Source: an uncultured Oscillospiraceae bacterium
GTDB lineage: Bacteria > Bacillota > Clostridia > Christensenellales > Aristaeellaceae
NCBI GenBank assembly: GCA_964518875.1
Contig: CAZFHI010000008.1
Location: forward strand, 1,929 to 65,928
Direction: 5' to 3'
Length of the DNA stretch: 64,000 nucleotides
The notes under the pieces were generated by a model. That model saw only the letters and a list, made by a program, of their open reading frames with translations, made no database searches and was not told where the DNA came from. The position numbers were made by a program, and so were the translations under genes. Shown here one piece after another: positions 15,669 to 64,000 of this stretch (positions within the stretch are counted from its first letter, which is position 1; each line of letters opens with the position of its first letter).

Positions 15669-17534
15669 ATGAAAAAACTGTCCGCAATTATTATGAGCAT
15701 TGCTCTCTTGCTGTCCATCATACCGGCTTTTGCCGCAGTAAGCGGCGAATTTACCGGTAAAGCTACTGGCTTCGGGGATGAAGTCAGCGTTACGCTCACA
15801 ATCAAAGACGATAAAATCGTAAGCGTTTCAGCTGAAGGCGCAAGCGAAACCCAGGGAATAGGCTCCAACGCTGTTGAAATACTTCCGGAAAAGATAAGCG
15901 AAACCGGCAGCATAGGCGTAGAAACTGTAAGCGGCGCAACCATTACTTCAGAAGCGCTCCTGGAAGCCGCAGGAAACGCATTATCCAGCGCCGGGCTTAA
16001 CCCTGACGACTACATGCAGAAATCCTCTGACGAAGCTAAAAAAGAACCCGTCGTGCTTGACTGCGACATAGTTGTAGTAGGCGCAGGCGGCGCTGGAATG
16101 ACGGCTGCAATAAGCGCCGCAGATCAAGGCAAAAAAGTAATACTCATAGAGAGCCAATCCATGGTTGGCGGCAACACGGTAAGGGCGACCGGCGGCATGA
16201 ACGCGGGCAAAACTCCAGTGCAGGATACAAACGATTTTAATGAAACAGCCGGAGTAGAAAAAACGCTTGGAAAAGCCAAGGATTTTCCTGACAACGCCCG
16301 CATACATGAACTTACGCAAATCGTTCAGAAGCAGTTTGACGAATATAAAGCAAATCCGGAAGGCTATTTCGATTCCGCAGAACTTATGCAGCTTGACACG
16401 CTTATAGGCGGCAAGGGCATCAACAATCCTGAGCTCGTGAAGACGTTCGCAGAAAGCAGCGCATCAGCAGTAGAGTGGCTGAATGAAAACAGCATTGCGC
16501 TTACTAATGTTTCAAGCCTTGGCGGCGCCTCTGTAAAGCGCACTCACAGGCCCGTAGGCGAAGACGGAAAAACAATATCCATAGGCAGCTATCTGGTGCC
16601 GCGTCTTGAAGAAAACGTGAGAGAAAGAAATATAGAGCTTATTCTTAACCTTGAAGCCGTAAGCCTTATAGAAAATGACGGCAGAATCACAGGCGTTAAG
16701 GCAAAAGGAGATCTCGGCGACGACGTAACAATAAACGCGGGCGCTGTAATATTATCCACAGGCGGTTTTGGCGCAAACCTTGATATGGTTGAACAGTTAA
16801 AACCTGAGCTTAAAGGCTTTATGACGACCAACGCTTCCGGCGCTCAGGGCGCTGGAATTAAAATGGCCCAAGAAGCTGGCGCCGCGGTTGTAGATATGAA
16901 AGAAATACAAATACACCCAACCGTTCAGTTTGATACTTCCGCCCTTATAACAGAAGGCCTGCGCGGAGACGGCGCAATACTTGTAAACGCGGAAGGCAGG
17001 CGCTTTACAGACGAAGTCGCCACTCGCGATGTAGTATCCGCAGCTGAAATAGCGCAGCCCGGCAGCTTCAGCTACCTTATAGTAGATAAAAACATGGCTG
17101 ACGCTTCAAGCGTAATTGCAGGATATATCAAAAAAGGCTTTACAACGGAAGGCGAAAGCGTAGCGGATCTGTCAGATAAGCTCGGTATGGACGCAGCGGT
17201 TCTGCAAAGCACGCTTGACGCCTGGAACGAATGTGTAAAAAGCGGAGAGGACAAAGAGTTCGGCAGGACAAGCTTTACAAACCCGCTTGACACAGCGCCA
17301 TATTATGCCATAAAGGTAACCGCCGGCATTCATCACACCATGGGCGGCCTTAAAATAGACGAAAACACCCATGTGCTTAATGAAAGCGGTCAAGCTATAC
17401 CGGGCCTTTTCGCAGCCGGCGAAGTAACAGGCGGAATACACGGCGCAAACCGTCTTGGCGGCAACGCCGTCGCCGACATAGTTGTATTCGGCAGGATAGC
17501 GGGCATGCAGGCAGCCGAAAGCTTAGATAAATAA
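15669..17534 (+). CDS. Secreted FMN_bind-domain + FAD-dependent flavoprotein reductase (soluble fumarate/urocanate-reductase-like)
   Basis: 621 aa. Signal peptide ...IIPAFA/AV. FMN_bind-like module ending VETVSGATITS. Dinucleotide fold VVVGAGGAGMTAA. LRGDGAILVN and GGIHGANRLGGNAV signatures. Confidence 0.8.
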   Translation: MKKLSAIIMSIALLLSIIPAFAAVSGEFTGKATGFGDEVSVTLTIKDDKIVSVSAEGASETQGIGSNAVEILPEKISETGSIGVETVSGATITSEALLEAAGNALSSAGLNPDDYMQKSSDEAKKEPVVLDCDIVVVGAGGAGMTAAISAADQGKKVILIESQSMVGGNTVRATGGMNAGKTPVQDTNDFNETAGVEKTLGKAKDFPDNARIHELTQIVQKQFDEYKANPEGYFDSAELMQLDTLIGGKGINNPELVKTFAESSASAVEWLNENSIALTNVSSLGGASVKRTHRPVGEDGKTISIGSYLVPRLEENVRERNIELILNLEAVSLIENDGRITGVKAKGDLGDDVTINAGAVILSTGGFGANLDMVEQLKPELKGFMTTNASGAQGAGIKMAQEAGAAVVDMKEIQIHPTVQFDTSALITEGLRGDGAILVNAEGRRFTDEVATRDVVSAAEIAQPGSFSYLIVDKNMADASSVIAGYIKKGFTTEGESVADLSDKLGMDAAVLQSTLDAWNECVKSGEDKEFGRTSFTNPLDTAPYYAIKVTAGIHHTMGGLKIDENTHVLNESGQAIPGLFAAGEVTGGIHGANRLGGNAVADIVVFGRIAGMQAAESLDK

Positions 17535-36811: not shown

Positions 36812-36870
36812 ATAAAAAAATTACCGCGCAGATGCAAAGCCTGAGTCCAAGCTTGTTCATCCGCGCGGTA
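36812..36870 (-). terminator. Terminator of the second flavoprotein reductase gene
   Basis: Minus-strand UACCGCGCGGAUG-(23 nt)-CAUCUGCGCGGUA (13-bp stem, one mismatch) followed by AUUUUUUUAUA. Confidence 0.75.
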
Positions 36871-36899: not shown

Positions 36900-38690
36900 T
36901 TATTCCGCTTCAGCTATCGTATTGCCAAATTCCATTCCAGAGGCAAAGCACCAGATGAGGTATTCGGCGTAAGCGCCGTTGATGTTGCCCACAACTTCGC
37001 CTGCGGCATAAAGCCCCGGGACCGGCTGCTCGTTTACATCCAGCACTTCAAAGCTATCCGAAACGTTTACGCCGCCCAAAGATGTGGCATAGCGCGCAAC
37101 CGTTTGCAGAATATAGAACGGGCCGTCCGTTGACATTTCAGGAGTATTGGCGCGTTTAAAAGGATCTTTATTGCCGGCGGCTGCGTTTTCGTTGTAGTTC
37201 TTTACGGTTTCCGCAAGCTTTTCACCGTCAAGTCCCAATGCCGCAGCGGCTTCTTCAAGCGTGTCGCCCTTTACAAACTTGGTAACGCCTGCGCCGTTTT
37301 CTTCAAGCAGCTGCGCTATCCTGTCTTTTTTAAGCACGGTGTTTGCGTCCAAAACTTCTTCGCTTAAGTCGAAGCCTTCCTGATCCATTACAATATAGAG
37401 CCTGCCGTCTTTTGACTTGTACATTGAGGCAAGCGCTATATCAAGCTCGTCGCCGTCTTCATTTACAACGCGCTCGCAGTCGCTGTTTACCGCGATGGCG
37501 CCCGTCTTTTTAAACAGCTGCGCAACCAAATAGTGAATATGTATACCATAACCGGGTTCTGTTTCAACGCCAAAGTGCTTGGTCGCGAGTTTGTCCATGT
37601 TGAACATAGGAACGCCTATTTCTTTCATCATTATGTGCCCGTCGCCTGTTGCGCCAACAGGTCCGTAATATATTACGCGGTCAAGTATTGAAGTATCAGA
37701 AATAAGATCCGTGTTGTTGCCGTAGCCGCCCGTCGCCATAAGAACTTTGTTGGCGTTTATAGTAATTTTCTGGCCGTCCTTGCCCACAGCTTCAACGCCT
37801 GCAACAGTGTCGCCGTCCATAATTAAGTGTGTGGCGCGTGTGTTAAGCATAACGGGTATGTTTTCATCAAGCACGCGTTCATACACAGTGTTTACAGCCT
37901 TTACCGCTCTGCCTTCGCAGCCATAGTGAGCAATAGGCTCGCCTTCAACAGGCTCCCCTGTTATGCCTACGCCTTCGCTCTTAAGCCACTCAATAGTAGG
38001 CGTTGAAAGCCTTGCCTGCATCATGGTTAAGCGCGCATTGTTCTTGAACTTTCCTATTCTTGACAAATCTAAAAACAGTTCTTCTATGTTGCGTTCAGTT
38101 TCATCAGGGTCATCGGATACTACATATCCTGGCATGCCGCCCCCTGCCATGGCAGTCGCGCCGCCTATCGCGGGCATCTTTTCTATGACCAGGACGTCTT
38201 TAACGCCGTTTTCATTAGCGGACAGCGCCGCTGATAATCCCGCCGCGCCTGCGCCCACTATAACGACATTGCAGTCTATGGTTTCTTCAGGCTTGGCTTC
38301 TTCTGAAGCTTCTTTTTCAGCGAATATAACTTCATCCGTTCCGCCCGCTTCCTTAAGCGCAGCTTCTGCAGCGGCAAGAACAGCCTCGGAAGAAACGGTG
38401 CAGCCTGCAAGCGTGTCGACAGAGAGCGTCTGCTGCTCCACTATTGTTTCCGGCAGCTGCTCGATAGCGGTAGAGCCTATGCCGTCTGTTTCATTGGGGC
38501 CTTCAGCCTTAACAGAAATGATAGCGTCATCGCTTACTTCTACCGTAACCGTTACATCGCCGCCAAAGCCGTCCGCCGTTGCAGTATAGGTTCCCGCATT
38601 GTACTTGTTCTCTGCCAGCGCAGTACATGCAAGCATCATGCAGAGCGCTAACACAAGCGCCGTCAGTCTTTTGGTTCTAATCGTCAACAT
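36900..38690 (-). CDS. Secreted or lipid-anchored FMN_bind-domain + FAD-dependent oxidoreductase, divergent paralog of 15669-17534
   Basis: ATG at 38690 with RBS AAGGAGGGA; the ORF track extends to 38726. Signal peptide MLTIRTKRLTALVLALCMMLACTALA. FMN_bind-like module ending VDTLAGCTVSS. VVIVGAGAAGLSAA dinucleotide fold. Lacks the RGxGA and HGANRLGGN signatures of paralog 1. Confidence 0.7.
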   Translation of the reverse strand: MLTIRTKRLTALVLALCMMLACTALAENKYNAGTYTATADGFGGDVTVTVEVSDDAIISVKAEGPNETDGIGSTAIEQLPETIVEQQTLSVDTLAGCTVSSEAVLAAAEAALKEAGGTDEVIFAEKEASEEAKPEETIDCNVVIVGAGAAGLSAALSANENGVKDVLVIEKMPAIGGATAMAGGGMPGYVVSDDPDETERNIEELFLDLSRIGKFKNNARLTMMQARLSTPTIEWLKSEGVGITGEPVEGEPIAHYGCEGRAVKAVNTVYERVLDENIPVMLNTRATHLIMDGDTVAGVEAVGKDGQKITINANKVLMATGGYGNNTDLISDTSILDRVIYYGPVGATGDGHIMMKEIGVPMFNMDKLATKHFGVETEPGYGIHIHYLVAQLFKKTGAIAVNSDCERVVNEDGDELDIALASMYKSKDGRLYIVMDQEGFDLSEEVLDANTVLKKDRIAQLLEENGAGVTKFVKGDTLEEAAAALGLDGEKLAETVKNYNENAAAGNKDPFKRANTPEMSTDGPFYILQTVARYATSLGGVNVSDSFEVLDVNEQPVPGLYAAGEVVGNINGAYAEYLIWCFASGMEFGNTIAEAE

Positions 38691-38760
38691 AGCAAATCCC
38701 TCCTTAGAGCTTAATTGACAATACAATTGTAGTATAATACACTTTTAGTGATATGTATGT

Positions 38761-39477
38761 TTGTTTTCAGACAAAGAGGGGGATTTTTTGTTAAAAGCGC
38801 TGCCTATAATTAAAAAGACAAAATTATTTTCAGGGCTTTCAGACACTGAAATTGAATCTTTAATCGCTAAAATGGACAGCAGGATTATATCCTTTAAAAA
38901 AGGAGATATAATATATTCCGCAAGCGTCAAATCTAACGGTATATTTATAGTGCTTGAAGGAAGCGTGATTTTAGAAAAGAACGATATCTGCGGCAACCGC
39001 TGCGTAATATCCGACTTGTCAGTCTGCGGGATTTTTGGCCTTCCATATGCGGTGCTTCCAAACGCTTCAAGAATGATGGACGCCACGGCCGCCCAGGACA
39101 GTATAGTTTTGTTTCTTAACATTAACGCTGTTCTGCAGGATAATGAAATTATGGCGCGGTATCCGGATTTTTTACGCAACCTGCTTATAATTATCGCTTC
39201 AAAGCTTGCAAGCGAAGTAGAGCATCCTTACAAAAACCGCACCACGCGCATGAAGCTTTTGTCTTTTCTCTGCATGAAGGCAAGAAAAGCGGGGCGCAAA
39301 TCTTTTGACATAGTATTTACCCGCCAGGAATTAGCGGATTACCTCGGCGTTCAGCGCTCCGCCATGTGCACGGAGCTCGCTCGCCTTAAACAGGATGGTC
39401 TTATAGACTTTAACCGCAATCACTTTACTGTTTTTTTTGACGAGCCTTTTAATATTAAAAACAGCAGTCAAAAATAA
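38761..39477 (+). CDS. Crp/Fnr-family transcriptional regulator
   Basis: cNMP-binding-like N-domain (LFSGLSDTEIESL..., KGDIIYSA) and C-terminal HTH TRQELADYLGVQRSAMCTELARLKQDGLI. No N-terminal Cys cluster. Start is uncertain: TTG at 38761 per the track, or TTG at 38788 just after GAGGGGGA. Confidence 0.85.
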   Translation: MFSDKEGDFLLKALPIIKKTKLFSGLSDTEIESLIAKMDSRIISFKKGDIIYSASVKSNGIFIVLEGSVILEKNDICGNRCVISDLSVCGIFGLPYAVLPNASRMMDATAAQDSIVLFLNINAVLQDNEIMARYPDFLRNLLIIIASKLASEVEHPYKNRTTRMKLLSFLCMKARKAGRKSFDIVFTRQELADYLGVQRSAMCTELARLKQDGLIDFNRNHFTVFFDEPFNIKNSSQK

Positions 39478-63013: not shown

Positions 63014-64000
63014 TTATTCAGCTACTGTAAGCTGTAAATCCATTCTGTTCTCATAAGCTTCTTTTAGCGCTCCCAGAATATCGCCGTGAGCGTCTTTAAG
63101 TGACATAGTCGCAGAAGACGTTACGTCAGCAAGCATAGCCTTTTCTTCTTCAGAAAGAGCATCATACTTCGCCTGATCTTCTTCATTTTTCTGCTCCGGC
63201 TTAAGCGGACGGCCGTTTGAAGCTGCGTACTTGTTAAACCAGTCTTCAATTTCTTCCACTGTCTTTCCAGCAAAGAAATCCTGATAGGCGTCCATCTGGC
63301 TGCTCCATGTTCCTGTAGCAAGCTTGTAGCCTTCACCGCGTTCGCGCTTGGTAGCCCATGTTAATATTTTTTCGCTGAAGCTTTCTTCGGTTATCTCCGG
63401 CGCGCTTTCATCTACCTTGCCATCGTGATCAAGATCGCTGTTATAGGGTTCGCTTCCAGGATAACCTGAGAAGTGCGGCATTGAAGGGCCGTCATAGTTT
63501 GGAGAAGCAACTTCAAGCTGATCTATGTAAGAATCCAGCACTTTGCCATCCTTGTCAAATAAAAGCGCCGCGAATACTTCGTTAATGCTGTAAACCCTTG
63601 TACCAAGATCGTCCTTGCCAGGGCCAAGCCTGCCGGACGTATTTAAGCTGATGCCTATTGAAGAAGCGTTCTCAAGGTCCTTAAGAGGCACCCTGTTTTC
63701 ATATGCCTTGCGGTATGAGCCTATTATATCCCCATGCGGGTCCTTAAGAGACATAGTCGCAGAAGACGTTACATCCGCCAGCATCGCCTTTTCTTCATCA
63801 GACAGAGCGGCATACTTTTTGACGTCCTCTTCCTTTTCCATGGTTTCTACGAGCGGACGTCCGTTCAGATCTGAAGTATATTTGCTGAACCATTCTTCTA
63901 CTTCGTCTACGGTTTTCCCAACAAACGCTTTCTGGAAACCGTCCATCTCCTGTACCCATGTTCCTGAATTCATCTTATATGAATCGCCGCGCTCGCGCTT
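63014..64000 (-). CDS. 3' part of a gene for a modular repeat protein (216-aa repeat unit; FMN_bind-like motif in each unit). The gene continues beyond the window.
   Basis: The frame stays open to nt 64000 (KRERGDSYK precedes the track's Met at 63973). Two copies of GTW..M D..Q.F.GKTV.E.E.WF.KY...NGRPL....K.EED..KY.ALS.EEKAMLADVTSSATMSLKD.HGDI.G....AYENR lie 648 nt apart, and the KRERG..YK..(S/T)GTW junction also repeats. Confidence 0.55.
   Translation of the reverse strand, partial: KRERGDSYKMNSGTWVQEMDGFQKAFVGKTVDEVEEWFSKYTSDLNGRPLVETMEKEEDVKKYAALSDEEKAMLADVTSSATMSLKDPHGDIIGSYRKAYENRVPLKDLENASSIGISLNTSGRLGPGKDDLGTRVYSINEVFAALLFDKDGKVLDSYIDQLEVASPNYDGPSMPHFSGYPGSEPYNSDLDHDGKVDESAPEITEESFSEKILTWATKRERGEGYKLATGTWSSQMDAYQDFFAGKTVEEIEDWFNKYAASNGRPLKPEQKNEEDQAKYDALSEEEKAMLADVTSSATMSLKDAHGDILGALKEAYENRMDLQLTVAE

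Follow-up and report, generated by a model that had tools for sequence, protein, structure and literature searches.

A predicted secreted flavin reductase lacking the fumarate reductase catalytic residues and its probable, divergently encoded Crp-family regulator in an uncultured gut Clostridia bacterium

Analysis of a 64,000-nucleotide (nt) stretch from an uncultured Oscillospiraceae bacterium (GTDB family Aristaeellaceae; assembly GCA_964518875.1, contig CAZFHI010000008.1, positions 1,929 to 65,928 of the forward strand; hereafter, the window) revealed a gene for a secreted flavoprotein combining an FMN_bind domain with an FAD_binding_2 catalytic region (hereafter, the reductase) and, on the opposite strand across a short intergenic region, a gene for a Crp/Fnr-family regulator. 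The interpretation that we favor, with a probability of roughly 70%, is that of an extracytosolic two-flavin reductase flavinylated by ApbE and controlled by a divergently encoded Crp-family activator. The reductase represents an uncharacterized clade within the known flavinylated extracytosolic flavin reductases, and not a new kind of system. Coordinates of the features discussed below are collected in Table 1.

Every residue that binds the substrate or conducts protons in the Shewanella enzymes Fcc3 and UrdA is replaced in the reductase, in agreement with an initial annotation of this region, made from the sequence alone, which had described a lack of fumarate reductase active-site signatures. 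Fcc3 residues were mapped onto the reductase using as a bridge alignment the product of another gene of the window, paralog 1 (15669..17534, +; 33% identity to the reductase), which retains each one of them and matches the Fcc3 structure (PDB 1qjd) with E = 1e-112. By this mapping, H365 of Fcc3 corresponds to E376, T377 to A390, R381 to K394 (K/T/S/G in orthologs), E378 to a variable position (Q/T/K/P in orthologs), the catalytic proton donor R402 to E415, and H504 and H505 to A535 and T536, respectively, while the Fcc3-type seven-residue loop "NRLGGNA" with its C-terminal Arg (GANR) is deleted. Thus, the substrate-binding set of Fcc3/UrdA (His365, His504 and the GANR Arg) is absent, with E376, A535 and the deletion in its place being invariant in 36 ortholog clusters, and the Arg402 donor along with the Glu378/Arg381 relay is missing from the reductase as well as from these clusters. 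Because all of these His and Arg residues are gone, substrate binding or protonation of the Fcc3/UrdA type is ruled out, which upholds the initial judgment that this mechanism is unlikely. The replacement of the C-terminal block noted initially was reproduced, and the Arg reported as missing from the region aligned to LRGDG of paralog 1 is indeed absent; that Arg, however, is R381 of the proton relay and not the catalytic R402, and since R402 is gone as well, the overall active-site conclusion is unaffected by this correction. The reductase also scores below the cut-offs of the NCBIfam models TIGR01813 (flavocytochrome c; 218.9 vs. 285.45 bits) and NF005064 (169.4 vs. 542 bits), the corresponding scores of paralog 1 being 460.5 and 523 bits. 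Paralog 1, likewise a secreted protein with FMN_bind and FAD_binding_2 domains, probably serves this organism as its extracellular fumarate reductase.

A large protein search yielded 36 ortholog clusters at 54–89% identity, all from metagenomic or metagenome-assembled Clostridia, with a sharp drop to the next matches at ≤40%. The set of residues invariant over these clusters includes H372, E376-T377, H384-I-H386, A390, G413-D-E-x-D417, R533-(Y/F)-A-T, Y574-A-(E/H)-Y577 and W580-C581, and 209 columns are invariant over 18 orthologs sharing as little as 55% identity. The ratio of non-synonymous to synonymous substitution rates (dN/dS) against the same-genus ortholog is 0.075; the reductase is under purifying selection and is no decaying copy. 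In a tree of 117 sequences (113 close homologs and four paralogs from the same genome), as many as 90 fall into one Arg-less superclade (100% support), the hallmarks of which are R533, W580 and the lack of a GANR loop, and the canonical "HH...GANR" proteins constitute a separate group; judged by this distribution, the loss of the Arg and His residues is not very unusual within the enzyme family. The reductase clade itself (36 clusters) is monophyletic with 100% support on a stem of 1.07 substitutions per site, its nearest outgroup being a Holdemania-type sister group at 35–39% identity. The term "divergent paralog" used initially was, therefore, an overstatement, as the reductase is no recent duplicate and falls into a deep monophyletic superclade that holds most of its nearest homologs; the other reductases of the genome, which are only 26–33% identical to it, are by the same token deep family members. 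An AlphaFold2 model built from a 113-sequence alignment (predicted local distance difference test 93.2, predicted template modeling score 0.87), which replaced a poor earlier model from 18 sequences (72, with a template modeling (TM) score of 0.4), has as its best PDB match the urocanate reductase 6t86 (TM 0.85, root-mean-square deviation 3.8 Å), followed by Fcc3; 3-ketosteroid dehydrogenase (KstD) and cyclohexanone dehydrogenase are matched at TM 0.66–0.73.

The domain architecture points to an exported protein carrying two flavins, and here the signal peptide, the FMN_bind-like module and the FAD fold perceived in the initial reading were all recovered by Pfam and by inspection of the sequence. 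The frame is open over 36900..38726 (−), and the ATG at 38690 is the likely start. The N-terminus, MLTIRTKRLTALVLALCMMLACTALA followed by ENK, displays a positively charged n-region (RTKR), a hydrophobic core and an A-L-A site preceding E. Since the A-x-A site (along with the hydrophobic core) is conserved in orthologs and the Cys of the signal peptide is not, the signal is read as a Sec signal cleaved by signal peptidase I (SPI), and a lipobox-type lipoprotein anchor was considered and set aside as unlikely. The FMN_bind region additionally matches the FMN-binding domain of PDB 8p2b (E = 3.9e-12). Downstream, the intrinsic terminator folds at −31.6 kcal/mol (z = −6.49; none of 200 shuffles as stable), its 13-bp stem and U7 tract being as described initially, and the next gene, encoding a DUF5107/TPR protein, starts 160 nt farther downstream. 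With the terminator behind the stop codon and this distance to the next gene, the reductase is supported as a monocistronic, single-gene unit with a predicted promoter of its own, again in accord with the first description.

The motif for flavinylation by ApbE is defined as D-x-x-[S/T]-G-A-[S/T] (PMC12052999). The reductase counterpart, D-T-L-A-G-C-T, does have the Cys in place of Ala to which the initial annotation drew attention, and the first [S/T] position of the consensus is Ala, as in many homologs. Among the 36 ortholog clusters D92, G96 and T98 are invariant, while position 97 is Cys in 32 and Ala in 4; Cys occurs at this position also in two outgroup proteins. In the fumarate reductase of K. 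pneumoniae, an Ala-to-Val replacement in the motif leaves ~50% flavinylation (PMC12052999). The Ala position tolerates substitution, and Cys97, which looks like a tolerated clade trait interchangeable with Ala, is therefore no argument against flavinylation. Given the invariance of D92, G96 and T98 and the presence of two ApbE genes in the genome (206 and 149 bits, one confirmed by Pfam on its open reading frame (ORF)), flavinylation of the reductase is to be expected. As a separate observation, the reductase, an extracellular protein, contains two clade-specific Cys residues: C97, adjoining the Thr predicted to be flavinylated, and the invariant C581 (of W580-C581), located in the final helix of the FAD domain.

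The divergently encoded regulator consists of cNMP_binding (PF00027, 35.4 bits) and HTH_Crp_2 (PF13545, 41.6 bits) domains. Its likely start codon is 97 nt away from that of the reductase, or 70 nt if the upstream TTG is used, within the ~70–100 nt given initially. A C-X3-C-X7-C cluster at residues 68–80 of the sensor domain was examined as a potential Fe-S or redox-sensing site (FNR-type [4Fe-4S]) and rejected for want of conservation: the same-genus ortholog retains the first two Cys, and all three are lost (replaced with W, H and G) in the orthologs from loci L001 and L002. The cluster may be a lineage-specific thiol switch or have no meaning at all, and the description of the protein as a Crp/Fnr-family member without an Fnr-type Cys cluster stands. 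The best PDB matches of the regulator are 9day and Lmo0753 (7t8o), both with E ~5e-7; no CprK entry is present among its PDB matches at E ≤ 0.01.

The intergenic region contains two predicted promoters that overlap back to back. A promoter scan detected a sigma-70 promoter for the crp-like gene and no consensus sigma-70 promoter on the reductase strand of this region; a reductase promoter with a −10 hexamer and without a consensus −35 would fit activator dependence. Four independent variants of the control region can be aligned over ~68 bp with no gap; they share three invariant blocks, TTGTnnGAAnnCnAAC, TATA(C/A)T on the reductase strand and TTGACA on the crp strand (read as TGTCAA on the opposite one; invariant in all loci), the sequence between them having diverged. 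A dyad-like 14-bp element, the candidate operator of the Crp-family regulator, belongs to a family with the consensus GTnnGAAwwCrAAC and is present as a perfect palindrome, GTTCGAATTCGAAC, in L001. As measured by script, the distance from the dyad center down to the reductase −10 is exactly 29.5 bp in all three loci measured (the window, L090 and L001), which would correspond to position −41.5, provided that the reductase transcript starts 7 nt after the −10. Transcription starts are predicted at ~38724 on the minus strand for the reductase and at ~38750 on the plus strand for the crp-like gene. Position −41.5 is the one from which class II Crp/Fnr activators act. The element also falls within the crp leader (~+9 to +22 of the predicted transcript), which suggests autorepression along with promoter competition. 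The strict dyad motif occurs twice in the 1.8-Mb genome and its other copy is inside a coding region; hence, the regulon of the Crp-family protein is probably local. Canonical CRP and FNR boxes were tried as candidates and rejected. Genome scans for TGTGA-N6-TCACA and TTGAT-N4-ATCAA gave 151 and 301 matches at ≤3 mismatches, not above shuffled sequences, and the intergenic region contains only 3-mismatch matches to either, so the TGTGA-N6-TCACA-like box suggested initially for this region did not materialize beyond chance level. By contrast, the proposed layout of a divergent regulator and its target gained weight from the conservation of the pair in six loci and the dyad at the class II position; the divergent Crp-family protein is very probably the regulator of the reductase.

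The six loci with the divergent Crp-reductase pair account for the four independent variants of the control region. In a genome of the same genus (G003), the reductase is 89% and the Crp protein 65% identical to those of the window and the flanking genes are the same. Crp orthologs divergent to the reductase are found in L090 (65% identity), L001 and L002 (43–45%), L095 and L096. Outside the genus, the genes flanking the pair differ at L095 and L096, and within the genus the reductase occurs in only 2 of 12 species; therefore, judging from these neighborhoods and this distribution, the pair behaves as a mobile accessory two-gene cassette. An empty insertion site was not found in other species of the genus, where DUF5107 homologs occur in unrelated contexts, and a neighbor screen around more distant orthologs returned no recurring pathway partner. 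At L005:3619-5796 (−), a 61%-identical reductase has as its divergent upstream gene one for a 725-aa protein with a C-terminal AraC-type helix-turn-helix (HTH) domain, which suggests regulator swapping around the same reductase.

A potential source of electrons is encoded elsewhere in the genome. The Rnf operon (C2:24598-31843; locus L080:599-7844, minus strand), located outside the window, begins with a gene in the RnfG position, followed by rnfC, rnfD, rnfE, rnfA and rnfB. The RnfG-position protein (980 aa) contains the FMN_bind domain seven times (summed score 369 bits) and, as read from its sequence, one N-terminal hydrophobic segment. For multi-flavinylated proteins, a role similar to that of multi-haem cytochromes has been proposed (PMC11334425), and the multi-FMN RnfG may be a "wire" from Rnf to secreted reductases.

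According to the proposed mechanism, the reductase would be exported by Sec and ApbE would attach FMN to Thr98 of its N-terminal FMN_bind domain. The Thr98-bound FMN would take electrons from an extracytosolic flavin relay and pass them to the non-covalent FAD, which would reduce a small organic acceptor by hydride transfer; a plausible route runs from ferredoxin via Rnf and the multi-flavin RnfG to the FMN and FAD of the reductase and on to the acceptor. In the rebuilt pocket, the His/Arg carboxylate clamp and the Arg donor would be replaced with R533, H384, H386, E376, E415, Y574, Y577 and W580. With the clamp and the Arg proton donor gone, we infer that the acceptor is neither fumarate nor urocanate; our best guess is that a different activated C=C compound, e.g., a cinnamate-type enoate, is the likeliest acceptor. 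On the regulatory side, the active Crp-family protein would bind the candidate dyad at ~−41.5 and, in the manner of class II activators, bring RNA polymerase to the promoter, and, with the same site in the crp transcript and the promoters overlapping, activation of the reductase would also throttle crp.

Several observations weigh against this scheme. Orthologs at ≤74% identity have no Crp gene, the pairing being specific to one sub-clade, and beyond it the AraC-type protein takes the place of Crp in L005 and other distant orthologs have no regulator. The transcription start is a predicted one, so that the −41.5 position rests on the conserved −10, and in the window itself the dyad is degenerate (4 of 7 symmetric pairs). 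Its conservation could in part be due to its place in the crp leader beside the ribosome-binding site (RBS). On the enzymatic side, the reductase has neither a membrane nor a wall anchor, which leaves its nearness to an electron relay unexplained. Some of these points feed an alternative in which the Crp-family gene is a mere neighbor, or responds to a global cue such as redox state or a cyclic nucleotide, and the conserved element is only a leader or autoregulatory site of crp; it would draw further on the fact that sequence permits no inference of the effector. We consider this alternative unlikely, as the distance between the dyad and the reductase −10 does not vary by a single base pair among four independent variants despite the divergence of the intervening sequence, the reductase promoter has no −35, the pair moves jointly between genomic neighborhoods, and the lack of another intergenic copy of the strict motif in the genome speaks against a global regulon.

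With regard to the chemistry, the enzyme might operate in the oxidative direction, desaturating an extracellular neutral ketone or steroid in the manner of KstD or cyclohexanone dehydrogenase, with the electrons passing via FAD and FMN either to an acceptor outside or back into the membrane. Like KstD-type enzymes, the reductase has no Arg/His set and has conserved Tyr residues near the C-terminus, and both types of dehydrogenase are clear structural matches (see the TM values above). Both sequence and fold are nevertheless nearer to UrdA and Fcc3: the NCBIfam KstD models give 94–122 bits, far below their cut-offs of 788–793, and the match to the KstD structure 4c3x (E = 1.5e-11) covers the C-terminal half only. 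The combination of a signal peptide with a flavinylated FMN_bind domain is, moreover, the architecture described for respiratory reductases, and an electron sink is the expected need of a small-genome gut anaerobe with Rnf, making the oxidative alternative decidedly improbable. From the absence of all textbook catalytic residues, the gene might also be suspected to encode a fumarate or urocanate reductase that has lost its activity or is decaying, non-functional or serving as a flavin carrier only; this appears very improbable indeed in view of the low dN/dS, the invariant columns, which include a new polar set at the former active-site positions, the intact ORF with its RBS, promoter and terminator, as well as the existence of Arg-less relatives that are proven enzymes (10.1101/2022.12.26.521950). 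A bolder extension of the favored interpretation would combine a catalytic arrangement distinct from those of the Arg-type and the published Tyr-type reductases, an acceptor class so far not assigned to flavin reductases and CprK-like sensing into a portable two-gene "sense-and-respire" cassette. Here, Glu415 would occupy the proton-donor position, His384-x-His386 would be situated on the strand on which Fcc3 has Met375 and Thr377, and the acceptor, e.g., a neutral or cationic unsaturated metabolite, would be sensed directly by the Crp-family protein. We regard this extension as speculative and somewhat unlikely.

Little et al. (10.1101/2022.12.26.521950) described reductase clades 2–4 (CirA, CirC, CrdD; Holdemania filiformis, Eggerthella lenta) that lack the two canonical arginines, carry a Tyr at the position of the C-terminal Arg, depend on clade-specific essential residues and include active cinnamate reductases, their genes being acceptor-induced and often located beside regulators. 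The reductase resembles them as a secreted FAD_binding_2 protein of the UrdA fold, encoded by a single gene adjoining that of a cytosolic HTH regulator, with both canonical Arg residues missing and other residues conserved clade by clade; its invariant Y574 and Y577, located beside the deleted loop, would, by position only, be the equivalents of the Tyr of these clades. It differs from them in the long stem that sets its clade apart, in an invariant set of its own (H372, H384-I-H386, G-D-E-x-D 413–417, Y-A-(E/H)-Y 574–577 and W-C 580–581) and in a distribution so far confined to uncultured gut Clostridia, with no characterized member. A Lactobacillus protein (L030), considered as a vinylphenol-reductase-like relative, was rejected, being a canonical fumarate reductase that adjoins a fumarase. 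With Fcc3 and UrdA (PDB 1qjd and 6t86; sequence E-values 1e-43 and 8e-33) the reductase shares the FAD and clamp-domain fold, and with UrdA also an electron entry module of the FMN_bind type, and it is set apart from both by the lack of H365, R381, R402, H504, H505 and the GANR loop. The FrdA-type flavinylated extracellular reductases of Listeria monocytogenes, which are fed by extracellular electron transfer (Light et al. 2019), offer a parallel: the host is Gram-positive and encodes ApbE, and the protein has a signal peptide and an FMN_bind domain, with a motif of the ApbE flavinylation type, joined N-terminally to FAD_binding_2. FrdA is a lipoprotein with a fumarate active site, unlike the reductase with its SPI signal, G-C-T motif and different pocket, and it is paralog 1 that represents the FrdA-like enzyme of the window.

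For the regulatory arrangement, the closest functional precedent is CprK with its dehalobox in Desulfitobacterium (PMC3638464, PMC2610375). CprK, likewise of the Crp family, recognizes the terminal organic acceptor and switches on the gene of the corresponding reductase via a 14-bp dyad (PMC3638464), and both systems combine a Crp/Fnr protein without an Fe-S cluster, a 14-bp promoter dyad and a reductase gene, the regulatory logic of the present one being a putative counterpart. The two regulators have no detectable close sequence relationship, effector sensing is a demonstrated property of CprK only, and the candidate operator GTnnGAAwwCrAAC is distinct from the dehalobox TTAAT-N4-ATTAA.

Table 1. 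Features of the reductase–regulator locus (window coordinates)
Feature	Position	Strand	Description
Reductase coding sequence	36900..38690	-	596 aa + stop; secreted FMN_bind + FAD_binding_2 flavoprotein of the Arg-less clade
Reductase RBS	38699-38705	-	AAGGAGG, seven bases before ATG 38690; kept in all aligned loci
Signal peptide, Sec (SPI-type)	38610..38690	-	Residues 1-27; A-L-A/E cleavage site; read from sequence
FMN_bind domain	38352..38570	-	Residues 41-113; Pfam PF04205, 42.9 bits vs. cut-off 22, E = 7.8e-11
Flavinylation motif	38397..38417	-	D92-T-L-A-G-C97-T98; Thr98 = predicted FMN acceptor
FAD_binding_2 catalytic region (FAD + clamp domain)	36969..38267	-	Residues 142-574; Pfam 181 bits vs. 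cut-off 20.4
Reductase intrinsic terminator	36813..36870	-	13-bp stem with inner hairpin, then U7
Reductase -10 hexamer (predicted)	38731..38736	-	TATACT; invariant TATA(C/A)T block in four variants; no good -35
Promoter of crp-like gene, sigma-70 (predicted)	38715..38743	+	TTGACA-17 nt-TACACT; promoter scan, 10/12 matches
Dyad-like 14-bp element	38759..38772		GTCTGAAAACAAAC; candidate operator of the Crp-family regulator
Crp/Fnr-family regulator gene	38788..39477	+	229 aa from TTG 38788, behind GAGGGGGA; in-frame upstream TTG at 38761

The 1.8-Mb genome encodes six proteins combining FMN_bind with FAD_binding_2, a seventh with the reversed domain order and further FMN_bind proteins. Reductases of this type number about eight in the genome. 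Further members of the reductase set are located at C1:183912-185822, C6:13827-15578, C31:8490-10190, C3:41508-43238, C4:35972-38254 and C18:12928-14454. Three of these six keep HHTMGG and GANR, with differing clamp residues; in the C31 and C3 proteins, which share 45% identity, xHMTKGG is found and the GANR loop is likewise missing; and in the C4 protein FAD_binding_2 is N-terminal and FMN_bind C-terminal. At the edge of the window, a 543-aa ORF (63014-64000, −, continuing to C8:66573) combines FMN_bind at the N-terminus with a long C-terminal portion that has no Pfam match at E ≤ 1e-5, making it another candidate flavinylated extracytosolic protein. At C5:70083-72489 (locus L081), the second ApbE gene, whose product has a lipoprotein-like N-terminus as read from its sequence, lies directly upstream of a gene for a 374-aa secreted protein in which a C-terminal FMN_bind is the only recognized domain.

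Overall, gut bacteria reshape dietary and host metabolites via large sets of secreted flavin reductases, most of which have no known substrate. Arg-less, Tyr-bearing clades of such reductases with neighboring regulators are already known (10.1101/2022.12.26.521950); what this locus adds is the conserved dyad at activator spacing, the two-gene Crp-reductase cassette and an ApbE/Rnf setting with a seven-FMN_bind RnfG. It defines a compact and strongly conserved clade, so far seen only in uncultured gut Clostridia, with a clear residue set, a dedicated regulator and a candidate operator. A modest set of reductases, which here may be wired to the multi-flavin RnfG, is present in small-genome Clostridia (1.8 Mb), in a lineage that is not among the three "high reductase" families known to date. 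As a reporter, the pair of regulator and promoter could help to screen for the metabolite that acts as inducer; for enzymes of this class, the inducer is usually the substrate.

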